A program made the translations under genes and the position numbers. DNA of 53,728 nucleotides, counting the filler, from Jimgerdemannia flammicorona (lineage: Eukaryota), in the NCBI GenBank assembly GCA_003990765.1. It is 2 parts of 2 records of this genome, joined end to end, with 100 filler letters (N's around TTAATTAATTAA, not from the genome) between each part and the next. Parts side by side here need not be neighbours in the genome. Positions count along the whole stretch, not along the records: positions 26,920 to 53,728 come from RBNJ01000693.1; 1 more part is not named here. One strand, written 5' to 3'. Of the stretch, positions 7,061-52,037 are shown one piece after another. Under the pieces are notes generated by a model, which was not told where the DNA came from, searched no databases, and saw only the letters and a list, made by a program, of their open reading frames with translations. Every line of letters starts with the position of its first letter. Positions within the stretch are counted from its first letter, which is position 1.

Positions 7061-7089
7061 TTAATCAGAAGAAAGGTGTCCTGAGGAAC

Positions 7090-14280: not shown

Positions 14281-14379
14281 GTATTCATCAGTATCAAGAT
14301 CACTGAGCTGGAGGACAAGAAGGAGGAAACTACAAACAAATACAGCTATACTATTAAAAATGAATTCCCACTCAAGACA

Positions 14380-22600: not shown

Positions 22601-22619
22601 GGCAGTGGAAGTGAGAGAG

Positions 22620-24150: not shown

Positions 24151-24199
24151 GAAGCATAATTGATCATTGGAGAAATATATTAAGGGTAGGTAGAGGATC

Positions 24200-25500
24200 A
24201 CAGGCAGGTAGAGTGGGTGGAGGAACATAGGTGAGCAGAGTGGGGGTGAATTCTTAGGGCCAAAAAAGTGGATTCTGTGAACAGCAAGACCATGAATGGT
24301 CTTTGCCACACTGTATACAGATATGAGTATAGGAATAGTTCTTCTGCTGACAGCCCAGATCCTTTGTGGGAAATCCATCACTAGTAATGCCATTGTAGTC
24401 ATATTATGTGAGACAGCTCACCATGCTATCCCCTATGTGAGAGGTCAAGTCTTCAGTGGGACAAGAGGGCTATAGAGAACTACAAAACCTAGATAACTTG
24501 AGAGTAGTGACCAGTATTTAGAGATATTAGTATAAACTAAGTACCATGAATAAAACAGGATTGTGGCAAGCCCATAAGTAATACTAAATTAGAGAGATAT
24601 CATTATTCACAATCTCTGCTAAGTACTTAGTATGAAAGGAGATGTGATAGTTGAGAAGTGCTGAGTAGAAGGATGATGTAGAGAGTAGAATAAAGTCAGT
24701 TGTATAGGTAAAGAATAGAGTAGGTTCAGTGAGCCTGAGATAAGCATCCTGGAGGATACTAAAATAACTGAGAAGTATGGCAAGAAATGCCAGGATGTCC
24801 AGGAGATCCTTAATAATAGACAGAGATCTCTACAGAATGACTCTTATACTGGAGTCATCAATTGATTTGATGAATTGAGCCTCAGGAGGGGAGCTGGAAG
24901 ATGTGACATTATACTCTAGAAACTGGCTGAGAGATGTAGTGGAAAAGGAGTTGCCAATGATCACTACCAAGAGGCATTGGTTAATATGAGCATTCTTGAG
25001 TGAGAGGTTGATGCTATGAATGATGGTGTGGGAGATGGCAGCAATGAAGACAGCAGGTAGAGGAAAGAACTCACCCTGTAGATTATCAAGCAGGCCATGA
25101 GAGCCAGGGGGAGTAGAGGCAGGAATCACTATTGAAAGAGAAGGCATAGAGGTGATAGCCACCAATAGAGATATGGTGGCACAATCTTTAAATAATTGAT
25201 TCATGATAGGGACAGTGAGATTGCTGGAAGGGCAGATCTTGATTGTCAGGGTCAAGGCTGGGGCATCAATAATTGTTATAGCTGGGCATGCCTGGAGTAA
25301 GTGGAGCAGCTTGTTGATGCAGCAGTCCTGGGCAGAAGTATATTCTTACAGAACAATGATACTGGCCTTGATGGAGCTGATAGAAGAGAGCAGCAGAGCT
25401 GCTGATGTAGACTGCTCTAGAGTGGGAGACGGCACTTGAACAGGGGCCTTGGACATCACATGGGTGGAGAGCTATAAAGAGCATTGAGAGAAGCAGAAGT
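24200..25500 (-). pseudogene. Ngaro ORF1 (gag-like), boundaries approximate
   Basis: Position between A1 and RT; Pro-rich N-terminal part and Cys/His residues near the C-terminus. Confidence 0.55.
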
Positions 25501-26197
25501 TGCTTCTTCTAGCAGATTTTCGAGATATAAAATCAGAGTGCTAATATCAGGATTATTATTATTATTGGGGTCATCTTGCAAAAGGTAGAGCATACATTTG
25601 ATAAAAGGGATATTGTAGTGGAATGGGCAAGATGTGGAACTGAGGTCATATTGCTCTTTAGATATATTAGAGAGATTGTGTCAGTATAGAGGGCAGGAGT
25701 TGACAGTGAGCACCATTGAGGTGGAGTGTATAGTAAATATGATATAATTAGAAAAAAGTAAGTATACAAATATACATAAAAGTGAATATGAATATATATT
25801 ATAGTGTAAAGAGTAGCATATAGTATATGGAGTACTGAATTAGATAGTATTAAATAAAGAAGACCAAAAAAGGAAATGTACACCCAATATGTAGCCCAAA
25901 ACAGAGACAAGATATATAGTGCTAAAGATACAAGTATCCAAGATATTCCTGCATTCATTGATCTGTGGGCTTGAATGAGCCCCCTTATTGAATGAGAAAA
26001 TACACTAAAGAAACAGTGGTAATAATGAGGAAAATACATTCTATGGATCCTGTCAATATGGCAGTTGTACTAAACGAGGTTAAAAGTATAGACAACAATA
26101 AGGTCAATAAATCCAAACCCAAGCTCAACAATGAGACAACCAATCTAGCCAATTAACTAAGTATAATAGTTACTATGAATACTGCAACAAGTATGAA

Positions 26198-26819: not shown

Positions 26820-26919
26820 NNNNNNNNNNNNNNNNNNNNNNNNNNNNNNNNNNNNNNNNNNNNTTAATTAATTAANNNNNNNNNNNNNNNNNNNNNNNNN
26901 NNNNNNNNNNNNNNNNNNN
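26820..26919. other. Artificial contig-joining linker (N44-TTAATTAATTAA-N44)
   Basis: Exactly 100 nt and symmetric; the central 12-mer gives stops in all six frames. Confidence 0.97.
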
Positions 26920-27929
26920 TAGCCAACTATGAGAACAGACCAGCACCCACAAATCCGACTCCATTCAGGCAACCACAGCAGCAGCCACCATCAAGAGTTC
27001 AAGAAGACCCCATGACAATGCTCACCAAGCAAATGAAGGACCTGGCCATCACAGTTGCCCAGCTGAAAAACCAAGGTAGAAGACAATAAGACTACTAACA
27101 TGATAACAGACCAGACTACTGGCAACAAGACAACAGAGGTCCTGCCCCTGCACTACCAGCTACAACTATAGTCTCATCAGTGACTGGTTCCTATGGTCCC
27201 ACCTGCTTCAACTGCAGAAATCAAGGCCACATCCAGAGGAATTGTCCAAGGAACCAATTCACTCAGTCTAATGACAGAAATATCAACCTCTTTCAGATAG
27301 ACAAAGAGACTCAGAAGATGGAAGAAGAAGCAGCCTGGCTCCATGGTCAAGAAGATGACATCTACTCATACTTCGAGGCTTTTCCATCCAAGGTGACATG
27401 GGAAGCTGCCCCCGCAGAGACCAGAGGATGAGGAAGACCACGAAGGAACCCCCCACCTCAACTGCCAGTAACAATATCCACAGGCAAGCATCTGCGACAT
27501 GGCCATTCTTCTTCAGACACTCCATAAGAACAGGAGAAGCAAGTTAGAAGAGATACTCCTGAACCAGAAGCCAGACCATCTAGGACAACCCCCAGCTCTA
27601 CCCTGCCAGACCTTGAAGAAGATGAGCATATGAGCATAGAATCTTCAGCTGACAAAATGCCCATCAGGAATGAGAGACTACACTCCAAGGCACCAAGACA
27701 CCAAAGAAGCAGCAAGCCCCATACAGTAGCCTCACTTTGGGAATATATCTGCCTACAGAATGCTGGTCTTACAGATGAGCAAGTCCTCAAGAATGCACCA
27801 GAGGTCAGGTGAAAATTCCTGAAAGAAGCCAAGGAAGATACCATGAGACTTCCAGTCCAAGGACCACATACTCAAGAACCTAGCACTATCTACACAGCCC
27901 ATGAGAGCCAGCAACATGAACATCAATCT

Positions 27930-28285
27930 ACAAGACTTGCCAATGGAAAAGTGTATGGTGAAAATGCCAGAATTCTTGTCGATACTGGAGCAGCAGTATG
28001 CATCATCACCCAAAGAATGTTGGAGCGAATTGGATGGAGAATAGATGAAGGAATCAAAGCAAGAGTTATCATAGCCAACAGATCAGCTTTCACACCCCTT
28101 GGACTTGTCAGAGACATCCCCATTCAAGTCAGAAAGGCCTGCCTCAATATACCCAAAGCCGTCATGACCCCTGCAACCTCCTATGACCTGATCCTGAGAA
28201 CTGACTGGTTAAGCCGAGTTGGAGCCAATGTAGATATCAAGAAACAACTCCTGGTCTTCTCCATTCATGGACAGAAGCACAAGGT
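27930..28285 (+). pseudogene. pol: E3 aspartic protease
   Basis: RILVDTGAAVCII; YDLILRTDWL within ORF 27843-28664. Confidence 0.93.
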
Positions 28286-29399
28286 GCCCATTGACTTGAA
28301 AGGATTATCCAAAAGGACGAATCAAGCCTCAGAAACAGAATGGCAAGGACATGGCGACACCCCCACTACTACTGAGAATGAAAGCGAGGCCAATTTCCTA
28401 CAAGAACTAGGAAGTGATTTTGATGCCCCTAGGGACCAAGAAAGTGAACAAGAAGACTCTTTCATTGGAGTTATTGGTATTGAAGGTCCGGAAGAAAGCA
28501 TTGATAGAGCCATTAATGCAAGGGCAGCACTTGAGTTTGCAGGACCATCTGCTCAACCACCACCACCACTGGTAGAAAATCGGATCATGCGAGCCTTTTG
28601 TCAAGGCATATGTGAACATTTCATCAGCTTCTACTCACCAAGAGATGATTGTAGCAATTGCTGAATTCTGGATCTCAAGAAGATTCCAATGCCAGAAATT
28701 GATGATAAGGACAAATTGAAGCAAGCACCATCCCACAGTTGAATACAACCTCCAACCCTGAAGACCTTCAAGAAGACCTATAAGAGAGGACAGAAGATCC
28801 TCACCCACCAAACATTCGAGTCCCTTACCATCGAAGGAGAAAGCAACAGCTCTTACACCATCACCCAGGCCCTCCAGATCACACAGCCCACCTATGACAA
28901 GTATCAGAAGAGATTCCCTACCAGTAGGGAAGTCAAACAGCGAAATGAAGACTTTGTCAAGAAGGGACATTGTGATTGTGGAAAGACCTTTACCTGTCAC
29001 TGGTGTAAACATCGAGATGTTCACCTCAGCGAAGATGTCTACAAGAGCTGAGTCAAGAGAAAGGATCCCACCCTGCAAGAACCTCGAATTTGCTGGGCCT
29101 GTCGGAAGTGCAAAGAAATCAACCATGAAGGAGATTGCAAGTTCAAGAGCAAGACCTCTATCTGGGATCTACTATTGGAAGTTCTTGCTATCATTCGCTG
29201 GTACTGCTGCCCTCATCAAGGAAAAGAAGGTATCAATCTTGCCTTCATCCTTATGGAAGCTCTGGACCCTCTAGGAAAGACTAGATTCAATTATACAAGA
29301 AACTCAAAGACAGGAGCTCACTGGCCTTTCTTCAAACTAGAGCACATGGACTTCTCACCTACAATGGCAATAGCTGAAGCACCATTTCTCAAAGCTCAA

Positions 29400-29815
29400 C
29401 CAATTATCCAGGTCAAGCTACTTTCACCCTGGGCACAGCCACCTCTTGCACAAACAGAAGGATCAGTTGGTTATGACCTCTGCCTCCCCTACCAAGCAAG
29501 AATCTGACCCAGAAGTACCAGGACTTTTGACCTACAGATCACACTTGCTATACCACCTGGGCATTATGGACAATTGGCCTCAAGATCCTCATTGACAACT
29601 AAAGGAGTCACAGTAGAAGGAGGAGTCATCAATCAGGACTACTGAGGTCCCTTGAAGGCCATTATCTGCAATTCTAGTAGAACCAGCTGATTCTTCAGTC
29701 CTATGGAAGCCATCTGCCAAATCCTGTTTATCAAGACATCACAGCCGACTATCCAAGAGGTAGACCAACTAGAAGATACCAACAGAGGACAAGGAGGCTT
29801 TGGAAGCACCAATAG
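29400..29815 (+). pseudogene. dut: E3 dUTPase domain
   Basis: GSVGYDL, GQLASRSSL, GGVINQDY(R)GPL, ICQILF, TNRGQGGFGST. Confidence 0.93.
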
Positions 29816-30269
29816 AAATCTATGGACACCATCTATCAAGGTTCATTTAGCAACAGTTGCTCAATTCTGACAAATGAGACCCCACATCTGCCGCCCAATC
29901 CAAGCAAAAGAAGATATCCTCCTGCAGCCCTACCAGCAAAAAGGCCTAGATGTGTACCTACCAGTAGAAGCAAACAACTTGATATTTGCACCATCACTGG
30001 AGCTTCAAAAGGAATACCACATCCTCCTGGCTGAAGAACGAATTCATGACCAGATGTCACCAATCCACATCCCTATCAGAAACTTGGGCTTTGAAGTGAT
30101 AACTATCTCCAAGAGAACAACACTGGGATATTTCGAACCACTGATAGACACCTACGAGGAAGAAGTCTTTGAATTCTTGGGAAACGGCAAGCCCTCTCCA
30201 GTGAGACTGATGGTACCAGGGAGGAAGACTCAGCAAATTCAGCAATCAAAGCCATCAACATTAAGACAA

Positions 30270-32870
30270 CTCTAACCAAGGACCAGCAACAACAGATAAA
30301 GGAGTTGATAGAGGAGTACGAAGATATATTTACCACTACATATGATAACTTCCCACCATATCAATATGGAGAATACCCTATACATACTGGAGATGCAAGA
30401 CCAATCCAACAACGACCCTACCGAATACCACATCATTTGATTGAATTCGAACAATAACACATAGATGAAATGCTATGAAATGGAGTCATCAGACCATCAT
30501 CAAGCCTCTGGGCTTCACCAGCAATTATAGTACCAAAGAAAGGAGGATGGAGATTAGTCATGGATTTCAGAAAACTCAACAAAGTCACCACAGAAGATGC
30601 CTATCCACTGCCAAGAATTGATGACCTCATCAATGCCCTCGGAAAAGCCAAATACATGATCACTACTGACCAGTTCTAAGGATTCCAAGTAATACCCATT
30701 GCCAAAGAAGATATCTGTAAGACAGCCTTCATCACCAGATGAGGACAGTATGAATACCTATGAATGCCCTTTGGACTCTGCAATGCACTTGCCTCATTCC
30801 AACGAATGATAAACTATGTCTACCGGGACCTCATTGGAAGAAATGTACTAGTATACATAGATGATGTAATCATCTACTCTGAGACATTCAAGCAGCATTT
30901 GCAAGACCTCCATGAAGTATTCAATACCATTCGAAATTCAGGACTCAGACTCAATGCCAAGAAGTGCTTCAGAAAACATCAAGTTGAATATCTGGAATAT
31001 GTTGTCTCAGCTCAAGGAACACATGCCGACCCCCACAAGGTGGAGAAAGTCAAGAACTACCCAACCCCGACCTCAGCAAAGGAGACCCTATCTTTCCTTA
31101 TGCTGGCATCCTACTATCGATGATTCATCTCAAAGTTTTCAGATAAGGCAGCACCTCTCCGAGATATCTCCAAGAAGGACCAACCATTTTACTGGAAAGA
31201 AGAACAACAAAAGTCATTCGACCTACTCAAGAAGGCCCTTACCGAAGCCCCTGTCCTGGTGTGACCAGACTTTGGCAAACTGTTCATCCTGACAACTGAT
31301 GCCTCAGCCTTAGGACTTGGATCAATTCTGTCTCAGCAAGATGACCAGAAGAGGGAGCATGTTATCGAATATGCTAGTAAGGCCACAAATGAAACACAAG
31401 CAAACTATGGAGCCACTAAGTTGGAATACCTAGCAGTAGTTTGGGCTGTGGACCACTTCCAACACTATCTCTTGGGAAAGAGATTCACTCTCATCACTGA
31501 CTATCAAGCTCTACAATGGTTGTTCAACAAGCCAGAGCCCTCAGGAATCTTCGCTAGATAGATCATGTCTCTGCAAGAATATCAGTTCACTATTGTCTAC
31601 AAGAAAGGTGCTAAGAATTCCAATGTTGATACCCTGTCAAGAATCCCGCGAAACCAACAAGTAGGAAAGGAGCCTCCACAAGAGAAGGCTGCTTCCTGCT
31701 TACCCAAATGAACCAAGAATTGCACCTCACCCTCATCTGGAGTCTGTACCATAGAAGCTTCAAGAAAGGAATCCAATCAGCCCACAAGTTATTTATCCAA
31801 AGGAATTTCAAGAAATTCCCAAGTTCTAAGAGAAGAAGAAATATTGAAGATCCTGACAACAAATCATGACCAAAATGCACACCGAGGAATTGGCGCCACA
31901 ATTGTAAGAATCAAGAAGTGATACTGATGGCCCAAGATGAGAAAACAAATTTCAATGCACATTCAACAATGTGATATCTGCCAAAGATACTGACAAAAGC
32001 CTACTGACAGAGCACCATTAATACCGATCACAGCACCAGCTGGAGCCTTTCAAAGACTAGGAATAGACATTATTAGACCCCTACCAGTAACCAGCCGAGG
32101 AAGATACTACATCCTCACTATCGAAGACCATCTGACAAAATGGCCTAAAGCCTTTGCCATTGAGACTGCTGATGCCCAGACAATTATTGGGATCCTGTAT
32201 GATGAAATTTTTAGCTGCCATGGTGTGCCCAAGGAAATCATTACAGACTAAGGCCGAGAATTTGTCAACCAAGCCATGAAGACCTTTGTGAGCAACTTCA
32301 AGATCAAGCTATGACCAACAACATCCTACCACCCACAGGCAAATGGACTCACTGAACAAATGAACCAGACCATCAAGTGAGGTCTCAGTAGAACCAGAGA
32401 TCAACTAAACTGGGATATCTATCTACTGGCAATTCTGTTCAGCATCCGTATCTCTAAGGCAACTGCTACCCAACAGACCCCCTTCTATTTGGTGTATGGC
32501 CAAGAAGCATATGATCCTATTGAACCAGTCCAGCTAGATCTGTCAAAACAAGTCACAGAAGAGATCACTTGGTTATACGACATACACTAGCAAGCATGAG
32601 GATTTATCACCAAGGTACAAGAACAACAAAAGAGGTACTATGACCACAAAGCTGACCTTGAACCCCTGCTTATTGGACAAAAGATTCTGGTGTACCATAC
32701 CATCATAGAAGGAAATTGGAGTGCCAAGCTTGAACCAAAATGGGAAGGCCCCTATCTCATACACCAAGTATTCTCAAACCACACTTATCAACTCAAGACC
32801 TTAGATGGAGTTATACTCAAGACCAAGATACACTGCAACCACATAAGACTCTACTATTCAAGAGAAGCAA
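30270..32870 (+). pseudogene. pol: E3 RT, RNase H and integrase
   Basis: MPFGLCNALASFQRM, YIDD, LTTDASALGLG, YHPQANGLTE, LEPKWEGPY. Confidence 0.95.
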
Positions 32871-35599: not shown

Positions 35600-36931
35600 A
35601 CTGTTGAAATATCTATTATTTAATAATGTGACTTATATATATATAACTATATTATCTTTAAGTTATATTACTTGATATATATATAAATATATATTATCTA
35701 GAATAATGAACAATACTTTGTACTCTTTTTCTCTAGTTTCTATTTTACTAAATTATAATAAAAGTTATAAGCTCTGCTTAGTAGCTAATAAGAAGTATCT
35801 CTCTAAGACTCTATACCAAGATGTCAATATAGATAAACTAAGAAATCAGCATAAATATACTAAATACAATAGGTATGAGTACTTTTAGAATAAGTATAAT
35901 AATTACAGTTTCTATAGTAAATATAAATAAAGCTAAGAGATTAATTCCTATCTTTAATAGTAAGAATTATATCATTTGAGCATTCTATATAAGTAATCTT
36001 CTAAAGAAGTATAGCTTGGCAGAGTATACAAAACCACAGGTTACAATACTACAAATAATTACTAAGTATTATAAGAGATTGTCTTCATATTATTAAACTA
36101 GCAAATAAAACCTATAATATATACTATAATAGTTTATAATATATAAGAGACTCTATGTAATCATTATATATAAATATTCTCATTGAATTGATTTTATCTA
36201 AAATCTTAGCTATTCTATCTATAAATAAAATCCAAAAAGAGTAACTACAAATATATCAATTATATTAACAATCTGGTAAATCAGGTAAATTTCCTAAGTA
36301 TACCAACAGAGTGTATCAGTAATAAAGACAAAATTCTGATCCTTATATAAGATCTCTCTAAGATGTATAATATTATAGTAGTAGCTATATGAGAGTAGAA
36401 AACTTGCAGACTATATCTATATAATAATGAGTGTTATTAATAAAGAGATATATCAAGAAAATAGTAGTAATAATAATAAGAAGAAAACATTCTACAGATT
36501 ATATAGATGAGATAAAAAGTACTAATAAGGCCAAAAATGTGAAAAATTTAATAGAAACTATCATTGCTATGATAAGTACAAATATATATAAAATTATTAC
36601 TATTGTAAAGATAAAAAGAATGATAAAAATAAGTATAGAAGCTAATATTAAAAATATGAGAGCAGTAGAAAGAAACATAATAGAAAAGAATAATATAATA
36701 TAAATACTACTAAAACTAATAATAATAGTAATATGTTTTTCATATAAAAAATCTTTATATATATTTACTGATAAGAATACAGTCAGTAAGAGTATCAATA
36801 CTATCAATAAAAATGATGTTTCACTTATAGATTCAGATACTATATAATATATATAGTTTACTAAGAATAGTTCTCAATATATAAGTCTTTCAAATATTCT
36901 ATACTCATTAAGTTAGATAATAACAATGTTA

Positions 36932-37170
36932 TATCCCTTTGTCTGTAGATAAGATCATCTTTTAAAATCATTTAGCAGACAAATTAAAGTTTGAAAAAAA
37001 TGATTTTTTGAAACATTGTTTTTCTGTTTTTTGTAAAATTTTTACCAAAAGTAGAATTATTTTATAAAAAATTATTGGTAAAATTTTTTTTAAAAGCTAT
37101 TATGATTTTAAAAGTTATAACCTTTTAAAATCTTGCCTCTAAATATAGGTGCAAAACAGTCAAAGAGATA
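36932..37170. mobile_element. MITE with ~15-bp TIRs and TA target duplication (Tc1/mariner-like)
   Basis: TA-TATCCCTTTGTCTGT ... ACAGTCAAAGAGATA-TA; non-coding; absent from the paralogous Copia A position (~19700-19740). Confidence 0.75.
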
Positions 37171-40100
37171 TACTTAAGAAAGAGAAAATTTTGATATATA
37201 TCTTTATAAAAATATTATAGAGCTTATCAGTACTTTTTAGAATATATTATATACTTTGAAGATAAGAAAGAATCTCTTTTTAATCAGCAAAATAATGGTC
37301 TGTAATAATAAAGAAATATATATACATCTATAAGAGCAATGATATACAGTTTGAAGAATAATAAAGAGATCATAATAGTATTAAAATTAAGATAATCTTT
37401 ATATGATTAATAGTATACTGAGTAATATAAAGATATCTATATATATAATAACTATGCCTAATATATCTAATACATAGTATCAATACTTAGAATATTTAGA
37501 GAAATCAAGCTTAGAAAGAATAATTAGAAATAGCTCTATATAAGAATTATTAACAATATACTATAGTAGTAATTTCTGTAAAAATTATATGACAAATAAA
37601 GTATTCTAGTATTTATTCAAGAAGTAGATAAAATATATATCTAGCATACTCAATTTAATCTATATAGATATATATAGTCTGATATATATTACTTTCTATA
37701 GAAAGAAGAGATATTTTATTATATTTATCAATAACTATATATATAAGATATATGTTAATAAAGAGCAAAGTCTTAGATAATTTTAAAGAGTTTAAAGTAA
37801 TTACAGAGAAAAAAATAGAATATAGAATATATACTATATATTCAGATAATAAATATAAATATATCAATAGTATATTCAAGTAGTATCTGAGAAAATATGG
37901 TATATATTATCAGATAATAGTACTATATATATGTATACCTGAGCTAGAGTTATCTAAGCTAAAGATAATAGAGATTAAGGATGGCAAAACTGATAATAAT
38001 GATAATGAAAGATCTATTAAGAGTAAGTAAACATAGTCTAATATTTACTGAGAAACTTATTCTAATTTAGAAGGTTATTAGATTATACTAAAGATATCTT
38101 AATATAAGAACTATATAAGCTATACTAAGTTATATAAATATATATTTATTATAACTTCTGGTAAGCTAAACATATATGATGAAATGATAACTTTCTCTAA
38201 TAATAAGAAATAGAAGTAAGCTATAAATAATGAGTATAATTTACTTATCAAAAATGATATGTAAGATCTGATATCTCTTCTGAGTAATCAATAAGCTATA
38301 TAAATAAGATAGATATACAAGATCAAGTATAAGAATAATAAAAGCATAGAGTGATACAAAGTATACTTTATTGCTAAGAGTTATTTATAAGGTTACAGTA
38401 TTGACTATTATGAGATATTTTTACTAATATTAAAGCTTACTTTATGAGAATACTTCTTATAATCAGTAATATATAAAATCTGAAAATCTATCAGATAGAT
38501 AAAAGATGGTTTTTCTCAATAGTGATATATATAGATAGAGAGCTATATATTTATCAGTTATAAAAATATGAGCAGAATGATAATCTTATATATAAATTAT
38601 ATAAAGAATTATATAATATTAAACAAGTAACCTATTTGTGAAATAGAAAAATTGATAAATATCTTCTTAATAATAGCTATATATACTGTAAAGCATAACT
38701 ATATATATGTATATTCAATACTATACTAATGGAGTGACTTTTATCAGTATTTAAATTGATAATATAATTATTATTATAATGAAAAACAAACTTAATAGAG
38801 TTAAAGAAGCTCTATATAAGAAATTCAAAATAACTAACATAAGTAATATATCCTTTCTTTTAGGGATATCTATTATATATATTAGGAGTATATATACTAT
38901 ACATCTTTTGTATCTAAGTTATACTAGAATAATTCAATATAAGTGAATATAAGCCTATTAATACTTCTATAGGTATATCTGTAAAGTTAAAGAAGCTTAA
39001 AATAAATAATAATAATAATAATATATATTCTCTATCAACAAGTAGTCAGTTTGCTCATATATCTTATACTAGAAATAAGATCTGGTATTTTATATACTAT
39101 AAAAAAGATAGTATAGTACTTATTATACTATGATAATTTATATTAAAGTACTATTAAGAGAATGTTTAGATATATTAAAGAAATAGTATATTACATATAT
39201 GCTTACTTTTAGTAGATTGAGCAAAAGTAATAGTAATAATAATAATAATAAGAATAGTATATAACTATCTAGTATATATAATACTAATTAGACTAGATAC
39301 TTAAATAATTACTAATCTATAACTGAGTACTTCTTTTAGTTAAATAATAAAGAAGTTATTTTATAGTAAATATATAAACAGTATTCTATAATAACTTCTT
39401 CTACTCAGACTAAATATCAAGCTGATGAAATAGCAACTTGATATATAGTATTAGAATAGTAACCTGATATATCAGTATATATCCTTATACTATTTTATTA
39501 GATTTATGTCACTTATCAGTAAAGTGTGAAATATGTAATCTATATAATTTCAATAAAATGTCTCTCTCTTTACAATAAAAGATTATGAGTTCTGCTAGTA
39601 CTAAGTAACTATAGTAAAAACACTTCTTTAAAATACACTATACTAGAAATATCTGATGATTAGTCTAGCAATATAAGCATAGAAATAGATATACCAATTA
39701 TGAGCATTCTTCCTATAGGTATAACCTCAATATGTATGGAAAATACAGTTTTAGTTATTAGCATAAATACAGTCAAGAGGTCTATCTCAATCTTCAATAA
39801 GAAAGACTATACTATTTGGATATTTCATATAATGAATCTTTTTGATGAATGTGACTTAGCAGAATATATGAAGCTATAAGTATTAATTCAAGATTATGAT
39901 TATAAATAATCACTAAGTATTATGTGAGATTATATTTATATTATCAAAATTACAAATAAAGCTTATAATATATATAATAACTGCATATAAAGTATAAGAG
40001 ACTCTATACAATCATCATGTACAAGCATCTATATTGAATCAGCTCTACTTGAAATCTTAGCTATTCAATTTTTGAATGAAGCTAAAGAAGAGTATCTATA

Positions 40101-43100
40101 AATATATCAGTCATATTGATGATCTGGTGAATTAAGTGAATTCTCTCAGTATGTCTGCAGATTATATTGAGAATAAAGACAAAGTTATAGCACTTACAAG
40201 AGGACTTCCAGATACATATAATATCATAGTGATAGCCATACATGAGAGTGAGAGACTCTAAAATTATACCCATATAATAATGAACCTCATGAACTAGGAA
40301 ATGTGCCAAGAAAACAGTACTAATGATGATGAAAATGCCTTCTACAAGTCCTATAGACATGGTGCTAAATAAGATCAAAAGTATGGTCAACAATAAGGCC
40401 AAAGGAGATAAATTCAAACCCAAGCTCAATAATGCAATAATCAGTCTAGCCAATCAGCTAAGTATAAAAGGTACTGTAAATATTGTGGCAAGTATAGATA
40501 TAGGAAATACCATTGCTATAGCTGGGAAAATAATAAGGAAAGTGGTGAAAATAAGCAATAATGTAAAAGCCAGTATTGGTAATATAGATATAGAAACTAT
40601 AGAGGAAAGTATGGTAATACAAATACTACTAAAACTAATGAAAGCAGTAATCTATTTTTTGTACAAACTGCTAGCTCTACTACTAATTCCATCAGTACCA
40701 ATTCTGCTAGTATAAGATCTACTACTAAATTCACCAATCTATCATCTATATATATAAAGGATACTACTATATATAATTTGCATAATAACAAGCTAATGAT
40801 AGCTTTGAAATATAGAAATCTTTATATGATCAATAGGATACTAAATAGTATAAAAGTCTCTACTTATATAATAACTATGCCTAATGCATCCAATATATAG
40901 TATCAATACTTAAGATATATCAGTAAGACAAGCCTCAAATATATGATAAGAAGTAGCTTAGTGAAAGGATTGCTAACATATATATGTATATCTAGAGAAT
41001 AGCTTTTGTGAGACATATGTAGAAAACAAAGCTTCTTAGTAACTATTTGAAAAATGATTAAAGTGTGCTTTGGGGATTCTTAATCTTATCTACACTGATA
41101 TATATGGTCCAATATATATCTCATCACACTTTGGTAAGAGATATTTTCTAATATTTATCAATAATTATATATATAAGATATATGTATATTTTCTATTAGT
41201 AAAGAGTAAAGCCTTAGAGAAATTCAAAGAATTCAAAACAATTACCAAGAATGAAATAGAATATAGAATATATGCTATATACTTAGATAATAGATATAAA
41301 TATATCAATAATATGTTTAGAGAATTTTTGATGAAACAGAGTATATCCTATCAAATAATGACTCTTTATATGTCTTAGCAAAATGGCATGGCTGAGCAAT
41401 TTAACTATATGGCCATTGAAATAGTATAGATAATGATCAATGTTACTGGATTAGGATATTCCTATTGAGCTGAAGCCATCAATATAACAGCATATATCTA
41501 CAATTAGTGTATATCTTAATTACTAAGTAAGAAAGCTAGTAACAACAAACATAAGAATAATAATCTTACTCCTGAAGAATTATAGAGTGAATTAAGCTAA
41601 ACATATCTCATCTATATATATTCAGATATATGTATATATCTTTGATAAAAGTAATATCAATTGATACAAATTTGAGCCAAAAGCAGCCAAGTATACATAT
41701 ACTCCTTAGATATAGTAGAAAAATGTATAGGTTCTGAAATCTATATATAAAATACATAGTGATTTTACATAATATACAATTCAATGAAAAAGATAATAAT
41801 AAGGAGATCTGTATAAAATACCCATGGAGACCTCTATATCTATATTTCAGCCAGTATAACAATCAGTATTGCCAACATCTCCAATAATTTCAGTAGTGAA
41901 TCAAAATTATTATTAACTACTATATGTATCTAAGCCAGAGTTATCTGAATTAAGAATCACCAAGATTAAAGAAGATGATACTAGTGAATCTTTCAATAAT
42001 AAAGAATCTTCTATAAAAAGTAAACAGATACAAAAATGCTCTAATGTATGCTAAGAGATATATTCAGAATTAGAAAGTTATTGAGACATGCCAGTGAGCC
42101 CTAGATGGTAGTAATGTCAAGACCATGTTAGCTATACCAAAGTATATGAATATATATATATTGTAATATCTTCTGGCAAGCCAAGTATATATAACAAGAC
42201 TATGCAATACCTGGATAGTAAGAAATGAGAATGTATGATGGATGAGAAATATGATTTACTTATTAAGAATTGTATGTGAGATCTAGTATCTCTTCTGCCA
42301 AACTATCAAGCAATTAGATTCAAGTGGATATATAGAATAAAGTGTAATACTGATAGTAATATAGAGTGGTATAAAGCTTGTTTTATTACCAAGAGTCATT
42401 TACAGGATTATGGTATAGACTATGATAGGATATTTTTACTAGTATTTAAGCTTACTTTGCTTAGAATACTTCTTACAATTAGTGTGGTATATATATAACC
42501 TTGAAATTAATCAAATGAATATAAAGACAGTATTTTTAAATAGTAATATAGATACTGAATTATATATCCATCAATCATAAGGATATGAAAATAGTAAGCT
42601 CATATAGATTACATAAGAGACTATATAGTATTAAGCAAGTAGTATGACTATAGAATAAAAGAATTGATAAGCATCTACTTGACAATAAATTCATATATTA
42701 CAAAGCAGATAATTGTGTATATATTCAGTATTATCACAATGGTATAGTATTTATTAATATATAGATCAATAATATAATCATCATTACTAGTAAAAATAGG
42801 CTTAATAAAGTCAAAGAAGCCCTATACTGAGAATTCAAGATAACTAATATAGACAATGCTTTCTTCCTTTTAGAGATATTGATTACACATGATAAGAATA
42901 TATATGCCATATATCTCTTATAAGAAAAATATGCTAAAGCCATTCAATATAAGTGAATATAAGCCAGTCAGCACTCCTTTTTTTTTTTTTTTTTTTTTTT
43001 TATGGACTCAGAGTCCTATAGATTTTTATTAGAAGGGAACCTAGACTATATAGACCAAAACCCTCCCCCACCACCCATCAAGCACTGCCCTCCTATTAAT

Positions 43101-43599
43101 CTAGGCTAGCTATTGTCCAGCAGCTTGACTATATCAGATACAGCAGAGCCTATGTTGGCCCTAGTGCTCTGAATGGATAAAGTTGATCCAGATGAGATTT
43201 GATTCAGATTCATCATATAATGGATTGGAATCAACTCAGATTGGTCTCATGATCTGATCTGGATTGATTCAGATTGATCTATCTGAATTGAAATCTTTAG
43301 TGACATCACTCTTTCTTTTGTTTATTTTGCTCTTGTTTTTTTTTTTTCTACTATACTTTGGTGACATTACTCTTTCCTTTTGTTCCCTTTCTTCTTTTGT
43401 TCTTTTTTTTATTCTTTCCTACTACATCATAAGTAAACAAAACAGCAGCCCTTAATTCATATATTGGTCTAGTTTACTTATTTTTTACCCTGCAATGATT
43501 ACTAAAAGAGGGAGTATTTGAGGTAGAAATACACTCTCTGCTGACAATATTAGATTCTTTCTCATATGGGTAGCACACAAGCTACTCATCAAGAGCCAA

Positions 43600-45583
43600 A
43601 GAGACAATGGTAGTGATGATGATAGTGGTAATGACAATAGCAGTAGTAATGGCGGTAATAATGGCAGTAGTGATGGTAGGGATGAGAGAGAATTCTAGTA
43701 ACAACTCATAGCAGCCCTTCAGACCTCAGAATTCACAGACCTCACAGCTATATATATGGCAGCCTTTTTGGAGTAGCTGATAGTAGATATAGGTTGCTTA
43801 CTCAGCTACTACTTATTTACTTGTATTTATTTAAATTTCCCCAACATAACTCAATTCACCTTATGCTTTTCTTAGAGTCTATAGCTCTATAGTGAGATCT
43901 GCTGACTTTATTCACAACATCTGGTCAAGATGAAGAAAGGCTGGCAGATATTGTGGAGCATGCCTTTGGTGGCTAAGCTATTGAGTCAATACATCACATA
44001 GTGGAGATCTCAAAAGGAACAGAAGTAAGCCTTTATGAGTAATCTTGTGCAACTTATACAACTTGTGCAACTCATTAGCATACAACTTATTGGCATGCAG
44101 CTCACTCACTTACTCACTCATGCTTGTTTTCTGAAATACCCATCTCAATGTTTTATTTAACTTCATTTTTTATGTAGTCTCCCTCTAAAAAATACTTACA
44201 CCTATATGTAACCTGTCTGTATACAACCTGCCCATACACAATCTGTCTGCATACAATCTATCCATATGCAATCTGTCTGCATGCAATCTGTCTGCATGCA
44301 ACCCATCTACATACAACCTATCTGCATACTTATCTTAGTCTCTCAGATCAGGACTCAGTTCTATTGAAAAGAAGAGTTCAAAGTTATCTGAGTTCAACCA
44401 CATCCAGTATCTGATCAAATAGAGAAATTCAAGGACAAGATATTCAGCATAAGCAGTACCAGCATTGTCATTAAGACTTGGGGGTCTATATTCAAATCAG
44501 AGCCAATTGTTCTCAACCAAGGAGTCTATTGGCCAGCAGGAGTAACCAATGATGAAAAGAACTATATAATTATTAATAAATATGGAGAGGTGGTTGCAAT
44601 GGTGGTAAGAAACCTTTATGGTAATGAGCTTTACTACCACATCAATAAGATTTGTAAGGATTGTATCAAATACTGAGTGGCAGAAAAGAGAGGGCAAAAA
44701 AAGCAAGGAGGGGGGTTTGGATGGGAATTGGGTATATTGCAACACTGGTAAAGAGTGGGTTCCAGAGTTCTGAAATCTCCTGCACTCATCTCCCTTTTTT
44801 TTACTCCTTCCTAGATAAATTACACTCTTCACTGATATACTCTTTTTGATATAATTCCAGAGATACACAAGATTCTGTACTCCTACTGGAACTTTAGAAG
44901 TGCTGTCAAAGAGCAAACTGTACATGAGCATGACACAGCCTGTGTAGCAATGGTGGCTATGATCTGGAGTTCTTTAAGCAGATTGATAGAGTGTATAGCA
45001 GGCCAGCTTGATAGTGATCTTAGTATAGCTGTATGTATATTCTTGGCACAATTTAGTATGCCATATGAGGTGAGGAGCTCTGCTTTTTTTGGGTGCTGTA
45101 GTCCAGGGGGTTTCTGCAGCCCAGAGGGTTTCTGCCCCCCTGTATGCAAAAAGGACTGACCAGTTGCCATCTGTTTTGACAGGTTTCCAAGCTGGGGCTC
45201 CCAGGGCTGGACCAAGAGTAGGTATCCACCAGCACAGTCTGGCAGTATGAGGTCCTGGGCTAAGGATTCATCCAATCATATACTTATATCACATCAGACA
45301 CAATGTTTCTCTGCCCACACACACAGATAATAATGTCATCCTAGTAATATTTTATATCTCAGAAAGGAAGGGCCCAACCTGTGAGGATAGTGGTAGAGTC
45401 TGGTATGACCTTACCTATAGTTTTGGGGTTCCATTTACAGCCAACATGACCATTCTATTCTAACCACATGACTATTATGGCACTGTTGTCTTCAAGGAGA
45501 GCTCAGACACAATAGTTGTCATACTCACAATAGATAATAGGCTCATCAAGGCCTGGGACCAGTGGGTGGAGCAGTTTTTGTAA
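43600..45583 (+). pseudogene. Putative TET/JBP-like 2OG-Fe(II) dioxygenase (spliced; 5' exons uncertain, core 44340-45583)
   Basis: IIINKYGEVVAMVV, GVWMGIGY, LGLPGLDQE, HTD (45320-45328), GRVWYDLTYSFGVPFTANMTILF(Q)PHDY(H)GT; GT-AG introns ~44755-44860 and ~45070-45182. Confidence 0.66.
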
Positions 45584-45584
45584 A

Positions 45585-46425
45585 GGTTAGACAATCTTTT
45601 GCAAGGGTTAGACAATCTTTTGTAAGGGTTAGGTAGTTATTTTGGGTGGGTTGGGCAGTTTTTTGTCAGGGGTTGGGCTGGACATCTCTTCTGTAGCACT
45701 AGTTTAGCTGTTATGCAGGGCCCTACTAGCCCCTCTATAGTGTTACTGATGCAGTGCTATGGTGCAGGACCAGGGTGTCCATGGGACCTGAGCTCAAATC
45801 TGTAGTAGACTTCAACTACTAGAAGTACTCTCTAACTGCCAGAAGTATCCTCTAACTACCAGAAGCACTCTCTGACCACCAGAAGCACCCTCCAATCACT
45901 AGAAGTACCCTCTAACCTAGACTCAGACTTCTTGGTAGCTTGGGGCTGCCCCTATATTGCTGACAGAAAACTGTATATTTTGTGTGCTCCCTCCACCTGC
46001 CCTGTCTGTCCTGGATACTTGTGGCTTGAGGCTGCCCCTTGCTACCAGTGGAGGGCCACAAATTTTGCACACTCCCACTACTAACTCTATACCCACCAAC
46101 TCTACCAACCAATCCTGCCCACTGATCTGAGTACTGATAGCTTGGGGCTACCCCTCACTACTGGCAGAGAGTTGCAAATTTTGCACACTCCCTCTGCCTA
46201 CCCCCCCTTTACTAACCTGGACACTTGTGGCTTGGAGCTGCTCCTTACTGCCAGCAGAGGGCTACAAATTTTACATGCTCTCTCTGCCGACCCTGTACCC
46301 ACCCACCAACCTGCTCACCAATCCAGGCACTGATAGCTTGGGGCTGCCCCTTACTGCTGGCAGAGGGCTGTAAATTTTTCATACTCCCTCTACTACCACC
46401 ACCAACCCTGCCAACCACTGCCCTA
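45585..46425. repeat. Tandem repeat cluster between the convergent hAT genes (~22-bp, 20-bp x5, ~90-115-bp x5)
   Basis: AAGGGTTAGACAATCTTTTG; CYAGAAGYACYCTCTAAC (45819-45917); GCTTGGGGCTGCCCC at ~45938, 46024, 46140, 46230 and 46336. Confidence 0.88.
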
Positions 46426-46539
46426 CTTAGGCCACAAACTTCAGGCTGAGTTCTCAGGTTTTTTTCCCCTTTTTATTATTTTTGAAAGATATTAAATATT
46501 CCACAAGAACAACCAACTCATCTGCAAACCCTCAGGACC

Positions 46540-49240
46540 TGCTGAATTTTAGCAGCCTGAGCCCCACCAAGACTTTAGATACATATATACCTTGATTGTC
46601 TCAGCATTCAGTATACACCTCTTTGGGACAATGAGATCCACCCCACCTGAGAACATCTGCTTGACAGGAGTGCTAGAGGTAGGAATCACCAGGTAGTTTC
46701 AAGTCATATCACACAGGCAGGGAAAGTCCATTTGATGTAGCTACATACCCTGGTGGATAGAGTGGTGGTTAGATTGGTGGGTTAAATTGGCCCAACACCT
46801 GTCTGATAACCACCTTCTACCAGTTGAGTACCTCTACACCCTCTAGCAGGATCATGTGGTCACTGGTGAAGTAAATTGTAAGTTTATCTATTGACAGCAG
46901 CTCTTCTACTGATGGCTTTCTCTTCTTCTTTCTGCTGAAGTAAATGTGGGATAGGAGGAATTCCTCAGCATATTTATTTAGACTTCAGCTGGAACTTTGT
47001 AGTGGTGTGTAGTTTTTCCAGTATACTTCAATTATGGCCTGCTTGGTTCTCTCAATGAAGTGCTACTCCTAGCCCTGATCTTTATGGTATTGTAGCTTTA
47101 AGTGTGGGTCCAGTACTATTTAAAGAAAAGAGAGTGAGTTTTTGCAGAGATTTCTCTATTTTGGAAGGAGCAATGGCTATATGCTGATATCAACATATCT
47201 GTACTAATTGAGTATACAGTGATATCTGTTTTGGAGTAGTATTTTCTAAGCTTGCTTAGAGCAACCTCTATGGTATCTCTCTGATCTAGGCTTAATCATA
47301 AATCACCACAACTCTCCAGTCTGTCCTCAAGCTTATTCTCTAGCTAGTCAATCAGAAGGTTATATGTATACTAGTATTGCAGAGCTTATTGTCAAGGTCA
47401 TTTGTTTGACTATATCCTTCATACAATCATCAAAACACTGGCAGTTATATATGGTGAGATATTGTATTGTGTAGAGGCAGACAAAACAAGTATATAAGCA
47501 GACAAAACAAGTGTAGAGCCAGAGCAATCACCACTTACTTCCAAAACTCTGACAACATTCCTAAGTATATCCCACTTGCTTTCACCTAGAGCCTCACTCT
47601 GTATTTCCTTATCAGCAGTCACTATTGAATCTATGGGCTTTTTTTGTTTTTTTTTTTTTAAAAAATAAATCTTCAATTATCCAAAACAAGTTGCTTTAGC
47701 TAACCAAAGAAAAAAAGGATACATATTACAGCAAACTCCAGTGCATGCTAGATTATTGCAAATGTTGAGTTCTAATGCATACAGATGTCCAATATAAGCT
47801 CTTTCAGGGCTAAACTAATTGCCCTATACTGTACAGCAAATTTGTCTCATCATTGTGGAGATGATTGGATTGACACAACCAGTTTGTGTAGCTTGGAAAT
47901 TATACTCAGGGCCCCTCCTCTCTCAGATGTTTTGTCTATGTGTATAAGATAGTCCTGAACAGTGAGGTTCAGTACATGGGCCTGGCATTATACACAATAG
48001 CTTTCTACACTGAAGGTCATATTTTCCTGTTTGAGGCTAGCTGCTAAAACTTGAAAAAATGTTGAGTTATTTGTGGTATTATCTGTTGTAATGGCCAAAA
48101 TCTATACTTGAAATATTCAGTTGGCAAATTTATGCAAAAATAAATAACCAATAAAATCTGTTTTGTTTTAGAACCTCTCTCAAAATACTGACCTGATGGC
48201 AAGCCCTCCTTTTTTACCTTGGTTGTGATCCCAAGCTCTCAGATACAATTAATAAAAGTATCTGTGATGTTGTCTCCAGAATGAGGGCCAGCAAGTTTGA
48301 CAAAGTCAAGGGTGAGAGATTTAAGCTATCAATCAAGGTCAATCTAATGACCAGTAATACTCAGAAATAAAATTGCATTGGGGGATGTTCATGTGTTAAT
48401 TATAAATGAAATTTTGCCTGCCAAATTCTGCTTATTGAATGTGAGGTTAAATTGGTGAGCTCTTTATAAAAATATATATATAATTCAGCTTGTAAAGATC
48501 ATAGTACTACCCTTATTTTACCTGAAGTATCTGGTGGAGATTATCATGCTCCTTCCTATAGACCTTCAGGACATCTTTGCAAATAGTATTGATACTTGGC
48601 AAATATAAATCATGTTTGAGGAGGCCAAATATACTATGCAATTGATCACTCTTGATAGTTGTGAATAGTTGGTCTGTGTATACAATCTAGCAAATAAGCC
48701 AATTTCAAAATTCTGCCAAAGAGTATGGCTAAATATTTTTGATTAAACAGGGTTATTAGTATAGAAATAGTCAGACAATTAGATAAATATACCCACTACA
48801 GCTTGGATGTCAATTTTATTTGTCTTCATATTCTTTCTGATTTTGTCAGAGTACTTGTCTTTTATATATCAATATATATTTGAAGTCATACTACTAAGTA
48901 TTTTGAACTTCTGACTGGTGCAGTTTATGGAGATAGATGAAACAGTATCATATGTATGTCAAACAAAAAGTGTCAGTTATATCAATAGGTACATCTTAAT
49001 TTTTTACCTATAATAATTATAAATAATATCATCTCCTATCTTAGCACAATATTGTTAGATTTTGGAGTGAGGATTGTGTGGAAGGAGTAGAACTAACAGA
49101 GATGTTTAACTTGAAGCATCATCAGTACTGTGAACTATTGAAGACTAATCTGTTGACATATATATTTGCATGTTTGTGTATACTTATATATATTTACATA
49201 TATGTGTATTGTATATGTAGATGTGTCTGGCATATGAGTC
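46540..49240 (-). pseudogene. hAT transposase (intron-containing)
   Basis: NT(W)TSPNA..FLSITGH(W)ID, GPHSGDNI, AITTDNTTNN, CQAHVLNL, LDPHLK, dimerisation region NYLVIPTSSTPVKQMFSGG...LKSWW. Confidence 0.94.
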
Positions 49241-52037
49241 ATATGGAGGATTTGGATTGAAGGATTCAGTTGAAGGATTCAAATGAGGATTTGGATTAAA
49301 GGATTTGAATTGGAGGATTCAGATTGAGTGATTCAGATTAATCTAAGTTGATTCAGATAGCTTTGGATTTGAGATTCAGATCAAACCATCATATAATGAA
49401 TCAAATCTGGATTTAATTCAAATTGACTCATTCAGAGCACTAGTTGGCCCATACCTCATTCTGCACACCATGCTCTCTCTACTATCAGAGAGAACCCAGC
49501 CATATGTCAATAACCAAAAGTACATACCCAAGACCCCAACATATATACAAGGCTATGCCCAAGCTGAATAGAATAGCTTCTATCACTCTAAAGAGAATAA
49601 CAGATAAAGAAAAAACCCTCATCAAAGTACATTACAGTAGGTAGGGCCTGGTTCTCCCAGATGAGGTAAGTAGAGGACTTATATGTATATAAGGTGAGAG
49701 AAGACCCCCAATATCCCACTACTCAAGTCTGTGGGCCTTGATCACATTGCCATATCAGCTCTCAGTTTTAGTTAAGTATAGTCAAGATACCTGAAATAGA
49801 TAGCCTTGGGCCCCCTGACCCCCCCCAATAACTGGGGCCCAACCCACTGAATCACCAAAGAAAGCCAAGAGTGATACCTACTATCTAACTACTCTGCACC
49901 AATCAAAAGACCCCACCAAAGCAGCATCTGCCCCAGCCCTAATGACTGCCCCCAGTCTGGCACCCTACTGGTTTACTGTAATCACCCTTCTACCTATTTG
50001 TGATGGCCATCTCCCCTCCTATCCCAACAATACCTAAAAAACAGTCACCTATATCAGAATTATGCTTTCTGAGAAGCTCACCAAAGTCAGAGAGCCCCAC
50101 CATAGACACTGAGGATCTGCAGGTAATCTATACTGGGTACTTGATACCCAAGGTCAGCTGACTCTCTATATAACCTATGATGCACCAAAACAATACCTTG
50201 TTGATAATGGCAAAAGAAAGAAGACACTACACCAAAATAGGTATACCCCAGATGCAGCTGAAGACAACAGAATCTGTGAAAAAGTAGAGAAGACACCAAT
50301 CTGACACTGATAAAGAGATAACTCAACACTATTACCCTCCTTCCACTATGTCCTTATAGGTACAGCAAATCAATCTGAGATAGAGAGGGTAATAATAGGG
50401 GAAAGGGAACTTGGAAGATTGCTTATCAAACCTTGTGACCAGTAAGGTAGCAGAGAAAGAAGCTATGCCAGTCAGCACTCCTATAGATACTTCTGTAAAG
50501 TTAAAGAAGCCAAACACTATATCTGAGAATAATGACAACAATATACTCACCAAAAACATTCTCTATTAGCAAGTAGTTGGCTCTCTTATATATTTCATAC
50601 TAGGAATGAGATCTGATATATTATATACTATTAATAAAGTAGTGTAGTATTCTTCTTTCTACAATAATTTACATTAGAGTACTGTTAAGAGGATTTTCTG
50701 ATATTTAAAAAAATCAGCACACTATATGCTTACATTAGATAGTGGTGATATTGGATTAAGGAGTAATGGTAAGAGCAATAACATCTAGCTATCTGGTGTA
50801 TATAATGCTGATTGGGCTGAAGACTTGGATGACCACTGGTCTACTATCAGATATTTCTTCCACATTAGTGAAAATGACAAAGAGTCTGTCATTTATAGTA
50901 AATATATAAGTAGAGTTTTGTGGTGACATCATCAATATAAGCAGAGTACCAGGCATTGTTATTGATAATAAAGAAAGCTACATATTTAGCTCTGTGAACT
51001 ATTAAAGAACTCAGATTCACTCAGAAGAGCACTATACTATACCAGAATAATTAGCTTATAATTATACTTACCAAGAATCTGATATACTATAATAGAATGA
51101 AACATATTAACATATAGTATCATTTTATAGATGAATGTATAGAAAATAGTACTATATACTTAGAATACATCTCTATAAAGTGTATGATTGCAGACTCATT
51201 GACCATAGCCCTTTCAAAGCTGAAGTTTGAGCAATACACTAAAGGAATAGATCTTATAAGCTATACACTAATATTTGGTTGATCACAGGATACTTTTCAG
51301 ATTATTAAAAGTCTTGTACTATATATATATTGATTACATCTCTCATCTACAAGAGGATTACATATATTATATTCTTCACATTCTTCATCTATAAATATTT
51401 TGGATATTTTAGATATTATAGAATTTTTTTAACCTGTGAAAATTTCTTAGATATAGAATTTTATTCTAATTCTTTAGGTTATATGTAGTTCTAGTTTTTA
51501 TATATAGTTTGTATTGCTTTTTTATTCTAGTTTGTATTTCTTTTTTGGGTATATATTGTATTCTTTTTTTTGGGTTATATATCTCATTGAGTGAGAGTAT
51601 TGGGATAGCAACTTAAATGTCAGTATATGATCTTATACTATTTTATCAGATTTACATTATTCATTAATAAAGTATAAAATATATAACCTATATAACTTCA
51701 ATAAAATACCCCTCTCTTTACAATATATAGGTACATGACTTTATACTACACTCCATCCTATTAGTTTATATTATTCATTAGTAATATATAAAATATATAA
51801 TATGTATATTTTGAATAAATCACTTCTTTTGTTTGTTACAATATAAGTCTTTTTCACTATAATAGAGAAAGCTATTTTGGATATATTAATTACTAAAAAA
51901 AACTAGGCTTTAATCAGAAATAAAACTCTATACTTATCTATCAGAATAACTAATCTATAATTACTATAGTAAAGAACTCTATATATTAATTTTAAATAAA
52001 GCATATCAATGTAGAGTATCATTATATAAGAGAGTAT

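Follow-up and report, generated by a model that had tools for sequence, protein, structure and literature searches.

A decayed hAT transposon of Jimgerdemannia flammicorona with a probable TET/JBP-like dioxygenase gene as cargo

Structure of the transposon

We analysed a 53,728-nt stretch from the genome of Jimgerdemannia flammicorona (NCBI GenBank assembly GCA_003990765.1), hereafter called the window, in which parts of two records are joined end to end (positions 26,920-53,728 come from RBNJ01000693.1). At 43162-49442 the window contains a hAT DNA transposon with two convergent genes. One, on the minus strand, is the remnant of a transposase gene. The other, on the plus strand, is a spliced gene for a protein that probably belongs to the TET/JBP-like dioxygenases, a group of enzymes that act on modified DNA bases.

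The element is delimited by terminal inverted repeats (TIRs) that match perfectly over 14 bp, with an imperfect extension to 26 bp at 85%, and by an exact target-site duplication (TSD) of 8 bp (Table 1). The window holds 18 perfect inverted pairs of 14-mers lying at most 10 kb apart, and an exact 8-bp flanking duplication accompanies only one of the 18, namely the pair that bounds this element. When such inverted pairs were counted in 50 Markov-simulated windows, the mean was 5.5 pairs and none of the simulated windows had one with an 8-bp duplication. A preliminary description of the locus, made from the sequence alone, had proposed a hAT element with perfect TIRs and an 8-bp TSD, and our analysis arrived at the same coordinates. 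The termini of hAT elements are of the YARNG type; here the TIR starts with TAGTG and the element as a whole runs from TAG to CTA. A reading with a 7-bp TSD was rejected, because no 7-bp solution is compatible with the flanks of the element.

The minus-strand transposase of the preliminary description is supported by a profile match above the Pfam cut-off. Translated as a minus-strand read-through with X at stops, the C-terminal part of the gene matches the hAT dimerisation domain PF05699 over profile positions 26-83 of 84 (E 1.9e-5; 24.8 bits against a cut-off of 21.4). Beyond PF05699 the decayed transposase frames gave no Pfam match, the RNase-H-like DDE core included, and two of these frames found no match among the PDB sequences. 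Motifs at 47964-48089 resemble, by eye and unscored, what we take to be the catalytic-core signatures of hAT transposases. The element at 43162-49442, with its short TIRs, 8-bp TSD and dimerisation domain, is a hAT DNA transposon of the autonomous type, represented here by a dead copy. The plus-strand gene and the transposase lie between the same TIRs, which is the arrangement of a TET+ DNA transposon.

The two genes are separated by a spacer with a 20-bp repeat in five copies (45795-45916) and a repeat of about 100 bp in four to five copies (45933-46412). These arrays could serve as terminator, binding-site or filler sequence.

Table 1. Coordinates of the hAT element and its parts in the window.
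Feature	Position	Strand	Size	Remarks
hAT element	43162-49442		6,281 bp	Both ends and flanking duplication
Left TSD, GTTGGCCC	43154-43161		8 bp	Identical 8-mer at 49443-49450
Left TIR, TAGTGCTCTGAATG	43162-43175	+	14 bp	Followed by GATT-rich subterminal repeats to ~43300
Putative dioxygenase-like gene, whole	43960-45583	+		Three exons; convergent with the transposase gene
5' part of the gene	43960-44754	+		Putative ATG at 43960; conserved exon ends at 44754
Intron 1	44755-44860	+		GTGGGT...AG, phase 1
Exon 2	44861-45033	+		Open frame; aligns to P0013 176-209 and P0015 48-94
Intron 2	45034-45182	+		GTATGT...CAG, phase 0
Exon 3, putative dioxygenase core	45183-45583	+		Terminal TAA at 45581-45583
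Intergenic spacer of the convergent genes	45795-46412			Two repeat arrays
Decayed hAT transposase gene	46552-48795	-		All three frames, many stops; N-terminal end provisional
hAT dimerisation domain PF05699	~46567-46740	-		Pfam
Right subterminal repeats (AGGATTTGGATTGA-like)	49247-49336		13-14 bp	About six copies
Right TIR	49429-49442	-		Reverse complement of TAGTGCTCTGAATG
Right TSD, GTTGGCCC	49443-49450		8 bp	Copy of the left 8-mer

The plus-strand gene and its lesions

The plus-strand gene is a genuine one; intact relatives of it exist elsewhere and are described below. It is present as a single copy in the window (tblastn). The convergent, spliced structure given in the preliminary description was confirmed: both introns have proper phases, that of intron 1 connecting the frames to which the homologues align, and in a metagenomic relative (L001) the introns interrupt the protein at corresponding positions. 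The start of the gene probably lies at ATG 43960, as suggested by a weak match to the N-terminus of the full-length relative P0013 (local score 34) and by a similar pattern upstream in L001, and thus upstream of the position 44340 given earlier. Our exon structure covers the stretches up to 44060 and from 44390 onwards.

The interval between these stretches includes a tandem repeat of 15 bp (AACCTGTCTGCATAC) in eight copies at 44210-44329, downstream of the putative first coding part and upstream of the conserved exon. The repeat could be part of an intron, or an expansion that broke the gene.

Several lesions interrupt the reading frame. Premature in-frame stops occur at 43999-44001, 44026-44028 and 44674-44676 in the 5' part and at 45219-45221, 45261-45263 and 45461-45463 in exon 3. 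All three of the latter align to Gln in the closest relative, P0002, in line with the C-to-T origin that had been assumed for them. The A7/G6 runs at 44696-44715, or their close vicinity, contain a frameshift; here the alignment with homologues agrees, weakly, with the homopolymer slip previously placed at about 44700-44715. A second break is found at 45297-45298: four residues of P0002, encoded by 12 nt, are represented by just 2 nt, so about 10 nt were deleted. The triad motif H-T-D reads without correction at 45320-45328, as the preliminary description had it, while the site of the distal His is TAT (Tyr) at 45476-45478. This position aligns to His in all five intact relatives, which bears out the earlier reading of the TAT as a former CAT. 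With its stops, two frameshifts and Tyr for the distal His, the window copy is therefore a pseudogene.

A slip in an AC repeat, previously assumed at 45317-45325, was ruled out by the uninterrupted frame through PTHTD, which is identical in P0002. The true break lies at 45297-45298, and the junction peptide '...YITSDTMFLCPHTDNN' that had been reconstructed across the supposed slip is therefore wrong.

Relatives of the encoded protein

Relatives were sought with phmmer, using the translation of 45251-45583 (with X at TAA codons) as the query against 1.84 billion representative sequences. This returned 13 proteins at E<=0.001, four of which we judged to be true relatives: P0002, a metagenomic protein of 136 amino acids (aa) with 68% identity to exon 3 (E 1.1e-40), P0003 (E 1.9e-19), P0010 (E 2.8e-6) and P0013 (374 aa; E 1.1e-4). 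In tblastn, exon 3 was matched in two frames at 70% identity. The nine remaining proteins were set aside as long repeat proteins with short matches in multiple stretches; P0004, P0005 and P0009 were inspected and the other six left unopened.

Residues 92-153 of P0013 also match 44533-44715 in exon 1 (tblastn within the window, E 1e-4). Exon 1 was outside the phmmer query, and the kinship therefore spans the whole gene. Word-index homologue searches returned two proteins for P0013 (P0013 itself and P0015) and two for profile A2; the same kind of search with exon 1 of the window against longer proteins returned none. P0013 comes from an assembled public run and is the only full-length relative, encoded in a single uninterrupted open reading frame (ORF). 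Since introns are present at the corresponding places of the window gene and L001, P0013 may derive from a transcript or an intron-less copy.

Scans for related loci found two in metagenomes, L001 and its near-identical twin L002, and none in viral contigs or prokaryote genomes. The relative encoded at L001 is intact, and its exons are split at protein positions corresponding to those of the window gene. At 3500-3640, the end of the L001 contig carries GATTTGA/GATTCGA repeats followed by a stretch with ~64% identity over 33 nt to the right subterminal and TIR region of our element. This hints that the L001 relative may also reside in a hAT-like element; the resemblance is too weak to use and the contig has no partner end.

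The family thus comprises the window copy, P0002, P0003, P0010 with L001, P0013 and P0015. Its members show the HxD/E...H triad of the 2-oxoglutarate (2OG)-Fe(II) oxygenases, in the form H-T-D or H-V-D in the window and the relatives, whereas in the window copy the triad is broken by the distal Tyr. The first and the distal His (H283 and H335 of P0013) are invariant in the five intact relatives. The Asp of H-x-D is found in four of the five; P0010 has Asn instead, while its close relative L001 has Asp.

The classical Arg, or Lys, that binds the C5 carboxylate of 2-oxoglutarate is absent from this family. At its position, the start of the last core strand, judged by eye from the PU- and AG-type sequences of transposon-borne TET/JBP proteins, which have the Arg, the window copy and all five intact relatives have T, H or N. 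The preliminary description had noted that the terminal Arg was not visible in the window, which is correct, and the relatives lack it equally. Judged from this alignment, the missing Arg is a trait of the family and not a consequence of decay. Another Arg occurs eight residues past the classical position in four of the six family sequences, the window copy included.

Comparison with published transposon-borne TET/JBP proteins

TET/JBP genes have been reported on many lineages of fungal DNA transposons, including twenty TET+ hAT families (hAT7) in six species of Puccinia (Kojima 2025, Biology 14:1741, PMC12730594). The earlier suggestion that TET/JBP cargo on a hAT element was undescribed has therefore been overtaken by this report. 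Our element is a further example of the published arrangement, not a new kind of system. Like hAT7, it is a fungal hAT with a TET/JBP-type gene beside the transposase and with methylation-linked decay of repeats, and the anti-silencing hypothesis of that paper applies to both.

The two are nevertheless different elements. hAT7 makes a 7-bp duplication, and CAAC is the start of the three consensus sequences for which it is given there (hAT7-1_PGr, hAT7-1_MLP and a third without a name), whereas our element has an 8-bp duplication and TAG...CTA ends (Kojima 2025, PMC12730594). Moreover, the hAT7 cargo is of the PU type, whose signature motifs as described in that paper are lacking in the window cargo. 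Neither the 14-bp end of our element, on either strand, nor its 10-nt core occurs in the text of the accompanying supplement, in which DNA entries are cut off after 400 characters.

Among the types described by Kojima (2025, PMC12730594), the protein appears closest to the PE-type transposon TET/JBP-like proteins. The motifs follow one another in the same order, starting with the N-terminal hairpin and ending at the C terminus. Around the distal His, P0002 80-102 and the PE-type protein EnSpm-22_AB are identical at 14 of 23 positions (YG.RV..AANT....QP.D.HGT), GEVVAMVVRN in the window corresponds to GELVAVVIRN in the PE type (7 of 10 identical), and the C-terminal pattern GL...T..RL is common to both. 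All these matches were made by eye and are unscored. In addition, PE-type proteins are borne by DNA transposons, are undetectable by ordinary hidden Markov model (HMM) searches, and lack the classical Arg while having an Arg after the last strand instead, as in our family (Kojima 2025, PMC12730594).

In contrast to the HxE that is the hallmark of the PE type, however, our family has HxD, and the PE carriers named in that paper do not include hAT elements. The family strings THVD, PTHVD, THTD, HTDNN, GRCA, FYNM and YGFGV are likewise absent from the text of its supplement (PMC12730594). We therefore describe these sequences as a small unnamed family that seems closest to the PE type. AG-type proteins differ further in keeping the classical Arg, in a strand of the R-I-G-Y type, and in their other motifs. 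The TET/JBP genes that accompany Kyakuja/Dileera/Zisupton (KDZ) elements and the CcTET of Coprinopsis resemble the window gene in being transposon-linked fungal TET/JBP genes, whereas KDZ elements belong to a superfamily other than hAT. For CcTET, oxidation of 5-methylcytosine (5mC) and also of N6-methyladenine (6mA) has been shown biochemically, as summarised by Kojima (2025, PMC12730594).

Nature of the encoded enzyme

We consider it probable, at roughly 0.7, that the cargo was a TET/JBP-like enzyme and that it belonged to the element; the dioxygenase assignment is based on look-alikes in the ESM Atlas and on the unscored by-eye likeness to the PE type. Part of its basis lies in the feature searches of the ESM Atlas, in which similarity to the Tet-like family 2OG-FeII_Oxy_6 (PF20515) is a lead and not a profile match. 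The best cluster for P0013 (0.96; 209 of 256 features shared) is from Basidiomycota, as are most of the look-alikes, and carries PF20515 on 15% of its members; a Tet_JBP cluster follows at rank 11. For P0002, PF20515 occurs on 72% of the members of the cluster at rank 3 (0.91; 178 shared features). The Atlas's own model of P0002 (predicted local distance difference test (pLDDT) 0.69) gave ten structure rows with template modelling (TM) scores by query of 0.54-0.63. Seven of the ten are named for, or carry, 2OG-Fe(II) oxygenase families and three have neither name nor family; a row with Tet_JBP on 28% of its members scored 0.61.

Several observations weigh against this interpretation. Pfam scans at E<=10 assigned no family to the cargo gene (six ORF pieces and six read-through frames of the window) or to P0002, P0003, P0010 and P0013, so that the comparison with Tet_JBP (PF12851) and PF20515 recommended in the preliminary description yielded no profile match. 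The rows Bys1 and GBD_T9SS_assoc (weak and irrelevant) and Keratin_B2_2 (over the 15-bp repeat) were dismissed. Neither P0013 (phmmer) nor profile A2 matched a PDB sequence. AlphaFold models reached a pLDDT of just 34.8 with a 5-row alignment and 43.6 with a 10-row alignment, too poor to use, and Foldseek with the latter model yielded no match at E<=0.001. Cupins, prolyl hydroxylases and FTO made up its weak top rows, and the Foldseek and VIA-align rows together comprised weak cupin and hydroxylase rows and helical noise, with no TET chain. Furthermore, the classical Arg is missing, the likeness to the PE type was drawn by eye, neither this family nor the PE type has a known enzyme activity, and the single copy seen is dead. 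Of the TET/JBP assignment made earlier, the HxD...H triad of the relatives, the Tet-like Atlas clusters and the PE-type likeness thus speak in its favour, whereas the Pfam and PDB comparisons do not.

As an alternative explanation, the cargo might be an Fe(II) oxygenase of the double-stranded-beta-helix type that does not act on DNA bases, for instance a captured host hydroxylase, prolyl-hydroxylase-like or other, without a role in transposon silencing. The lack of a Tet_JBP or PF20515 HMM match and the prolyl hydroxylases, FTO and cupins among the weak Foldseek rows would agree with this, as would the Atlas structure rows, where clusters of prolyl-4-hydroxylase, HIF-hydroxylase and 2OG-FeII_Oxy_3/5 type span TM 0.54-0.63 against 0.61 for the Tet_JBP-bearing cluster. 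Since prolyl-hydroxylase-type clusters score alike, the fold is better supported than the TET assignment. We nevertheless regard a non-DNA oxygenase as distinctly improbable: each of the two Atlas feature searches had Tet-like PF20515 as its top family-carrying cluster, the likeness to the PE type by eye takes in N-terminal as well as core motifs and so reaches outside the generic beta-helix core, and the gene sits inside a DNA transposon, a setting in which fungal TET/JBP genes recur (Kojima 2025, PMC12730594). A different possibility, which we find improbable as well, is that the family has lost, or never had, 2OG-dependent chemistry, and either uses another co-substrate or is a non-catalytic factor binding DNA or modified bases. 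The absence of the classical Arg from the window and all five intact relatives and the Asn of P0010 would suit such a protein, and the nearest solved relative of the PE type by HHpred, CMD1, uses vitamin C instead of 2-oxoglutarate (Kojima 2025, PMC12730594). On the other hand, both His are invariant and four of the five relatives keep the Asp, the Arg eight residues downstream could take over the binding role, and the models are too poor to judge the pocket.

The position of the gene in the element could also be accidental, either as a one-off pickup by this copy or sub-lineage of the hAT family or as a separate nested insertion. A single copy was examined, and the flanks of L001, a contig of 3.7 kb and the one member of the near-identical pair that was scanned, have no transposase domain and no TIR pair, which likewise counts against a TET/JBP-like gene as a regular part of the element. 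However, the contigs of L001 and L002 measure just 3.7 and 2.9 kb, so the absence of a recognisable hAT transposase from them is weak evidence. Within our element, no internal TIR/TSD pair brackets the gene and there is no second transposase, the 6.3 kb are accounted for by the two genes and the subterminal repeats, and both genes have decayed alike. Accidental capture therefore seems doubtful to us, though it deserves serious attention, and we retain the reading of a TET/JBP-like enzyme that belonged to the element.

Sequence decay and a possible counter-defence

The sequence of the element is strongly depleted in CpG. The observed/expected ratio is 0.01 (two CpGs), with all four of the NCG contexts emptied, whereas GpC is normal (1.03) and TpG (1.24) and CpA (1.30) are raised. 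This agrees with the methylation-type C-to-T decay reported in the preliminary description. Classical repeat-induced point mutation (RIP) was rejected as an explanation, with TpA not enriched (0.92); the decay fits deamination of methylated CpG rather than CpA-directed RIP.

The stops in exon 3 at 45219-45463 (TAG/TAA for Gln) and the CAT-to-TAT-like loss of the distal His arose by C-to-T change in a CpA and not a CpG context. Other decay must therefore have acted too, and the process was not purely CpG-directed.

Neighbouring repeats are equally depleted in CpG (0.01 both at 12-17 kb and in the 49.4-53.7 kb part), and no lasting protection is therefore visible in the window copy. The fossil copy indicates that CpG-directed decay eventually erased the element, and says nothing on whether the enzyme had protected it in the past.

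According to Kojima (2025, PMC12730594), transposon-borne TET/JBP enzymes may counter both methylation-based silencing and C-to-T hypermutation. Following established hAT biology, the transposase of our element would have attached to its ends and to the GATT-rich subterminal repeats, and cut and pasted the element, leaving the 8-bp duplication. In live copies, if family resemblance and Kojima's hypothesis hold, the Fe(II) enzyme would have oxidised methylated or otherwise modified bases on transposon DNA, most likely 5mC at CpG. Such oxidation could have relieved methylation-based silencing and slowed methylation-driven C-to-T decay. The window copy, with both genes broken and its CpGs almost gone, would have lost this contest. 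We put the odds that 5mC was in fact the substrate at about even.

A more far-reaching interpretation, which we regard as speculative and unlikely, is that the HxD, Arg-less, PE-like family represents a fourth transposon-borne TET/JBP-like type, captured independently by a hAT with 8-bp duplications. Its altered pocket might then mean chemistry beyond 2OG-dependent oxidation of 5mC, perhaps of the CMD1 kind; we give little credence to this latter step.

A functional parallel is found in plants. VANC, encoded by the Mutator-like VANDAL transposons of Arabidopsis, is a factor that undoes the DNA-methylation silencing of the transposon family that carries it. VANC differs from the protein studied here in not being an oxygenase, and the two have no relation in sequence or fold, so that the analogy is functional only.

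If the TET/JBP-like reading is right, the capture of base-oxidising enzymes would extend beyond the lineages described in 2025 to a canonical hAT and to a dioxygenase clade invisible to standard profiles. It would then speak for the idea that captures of this kind happen often and are in many cases still unannotated. The intact Arg-less relatives could also inform the enzymology of TET/JBP proteins. To the published work our analysis adds evidence of an HxD, Arg-less, PE-like clade that has gone unannotated, and of a second lineage of hAT elements that appears to have such cargo.

Sequence surroundings

The window, with a G+C content of 36%, is full of decayed retroelements of the Gypsy type. 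At least three bodies of Gypsy-type long terminal repeat (LTR) retrotransposons are recognisable (4990-7530, 12420-14870 and 27099-31120). Two of them contain a dUTPase domain (4990-5556 and 13930-14421), with adjoining matches to reverse transcriptase, protease, zinc knuckle and integrase zinc finger. Gypsy elements with a dUTPase are typical of basidiomycete fungi. Scans of the window for Rfam families and tRNA genes gave no matches.

Blocks with a G+C content of 19-30% occur at 10001-11000, 18001-20000, 36001-43000 and 51001-52000. The block at 36-43 kb contains no CpG at all and, unlike the hAT element and the retroelements, is enriched in TpA (1.24) and depleted in TpG (0.92) and CpA (0.91). 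This pattern may reflect an older or different decay, or simply an AT-rich spacer. Two runs of 44 N (26820-26863 and 26876-26919) represent assembly gaps or masked stretches. Finally, 21000-26000 has a strong positive GC skew of 0.2-0.36 and open frames on the minus strand only, with no Pfam match among them, and appears as a strand-asymmetric element.

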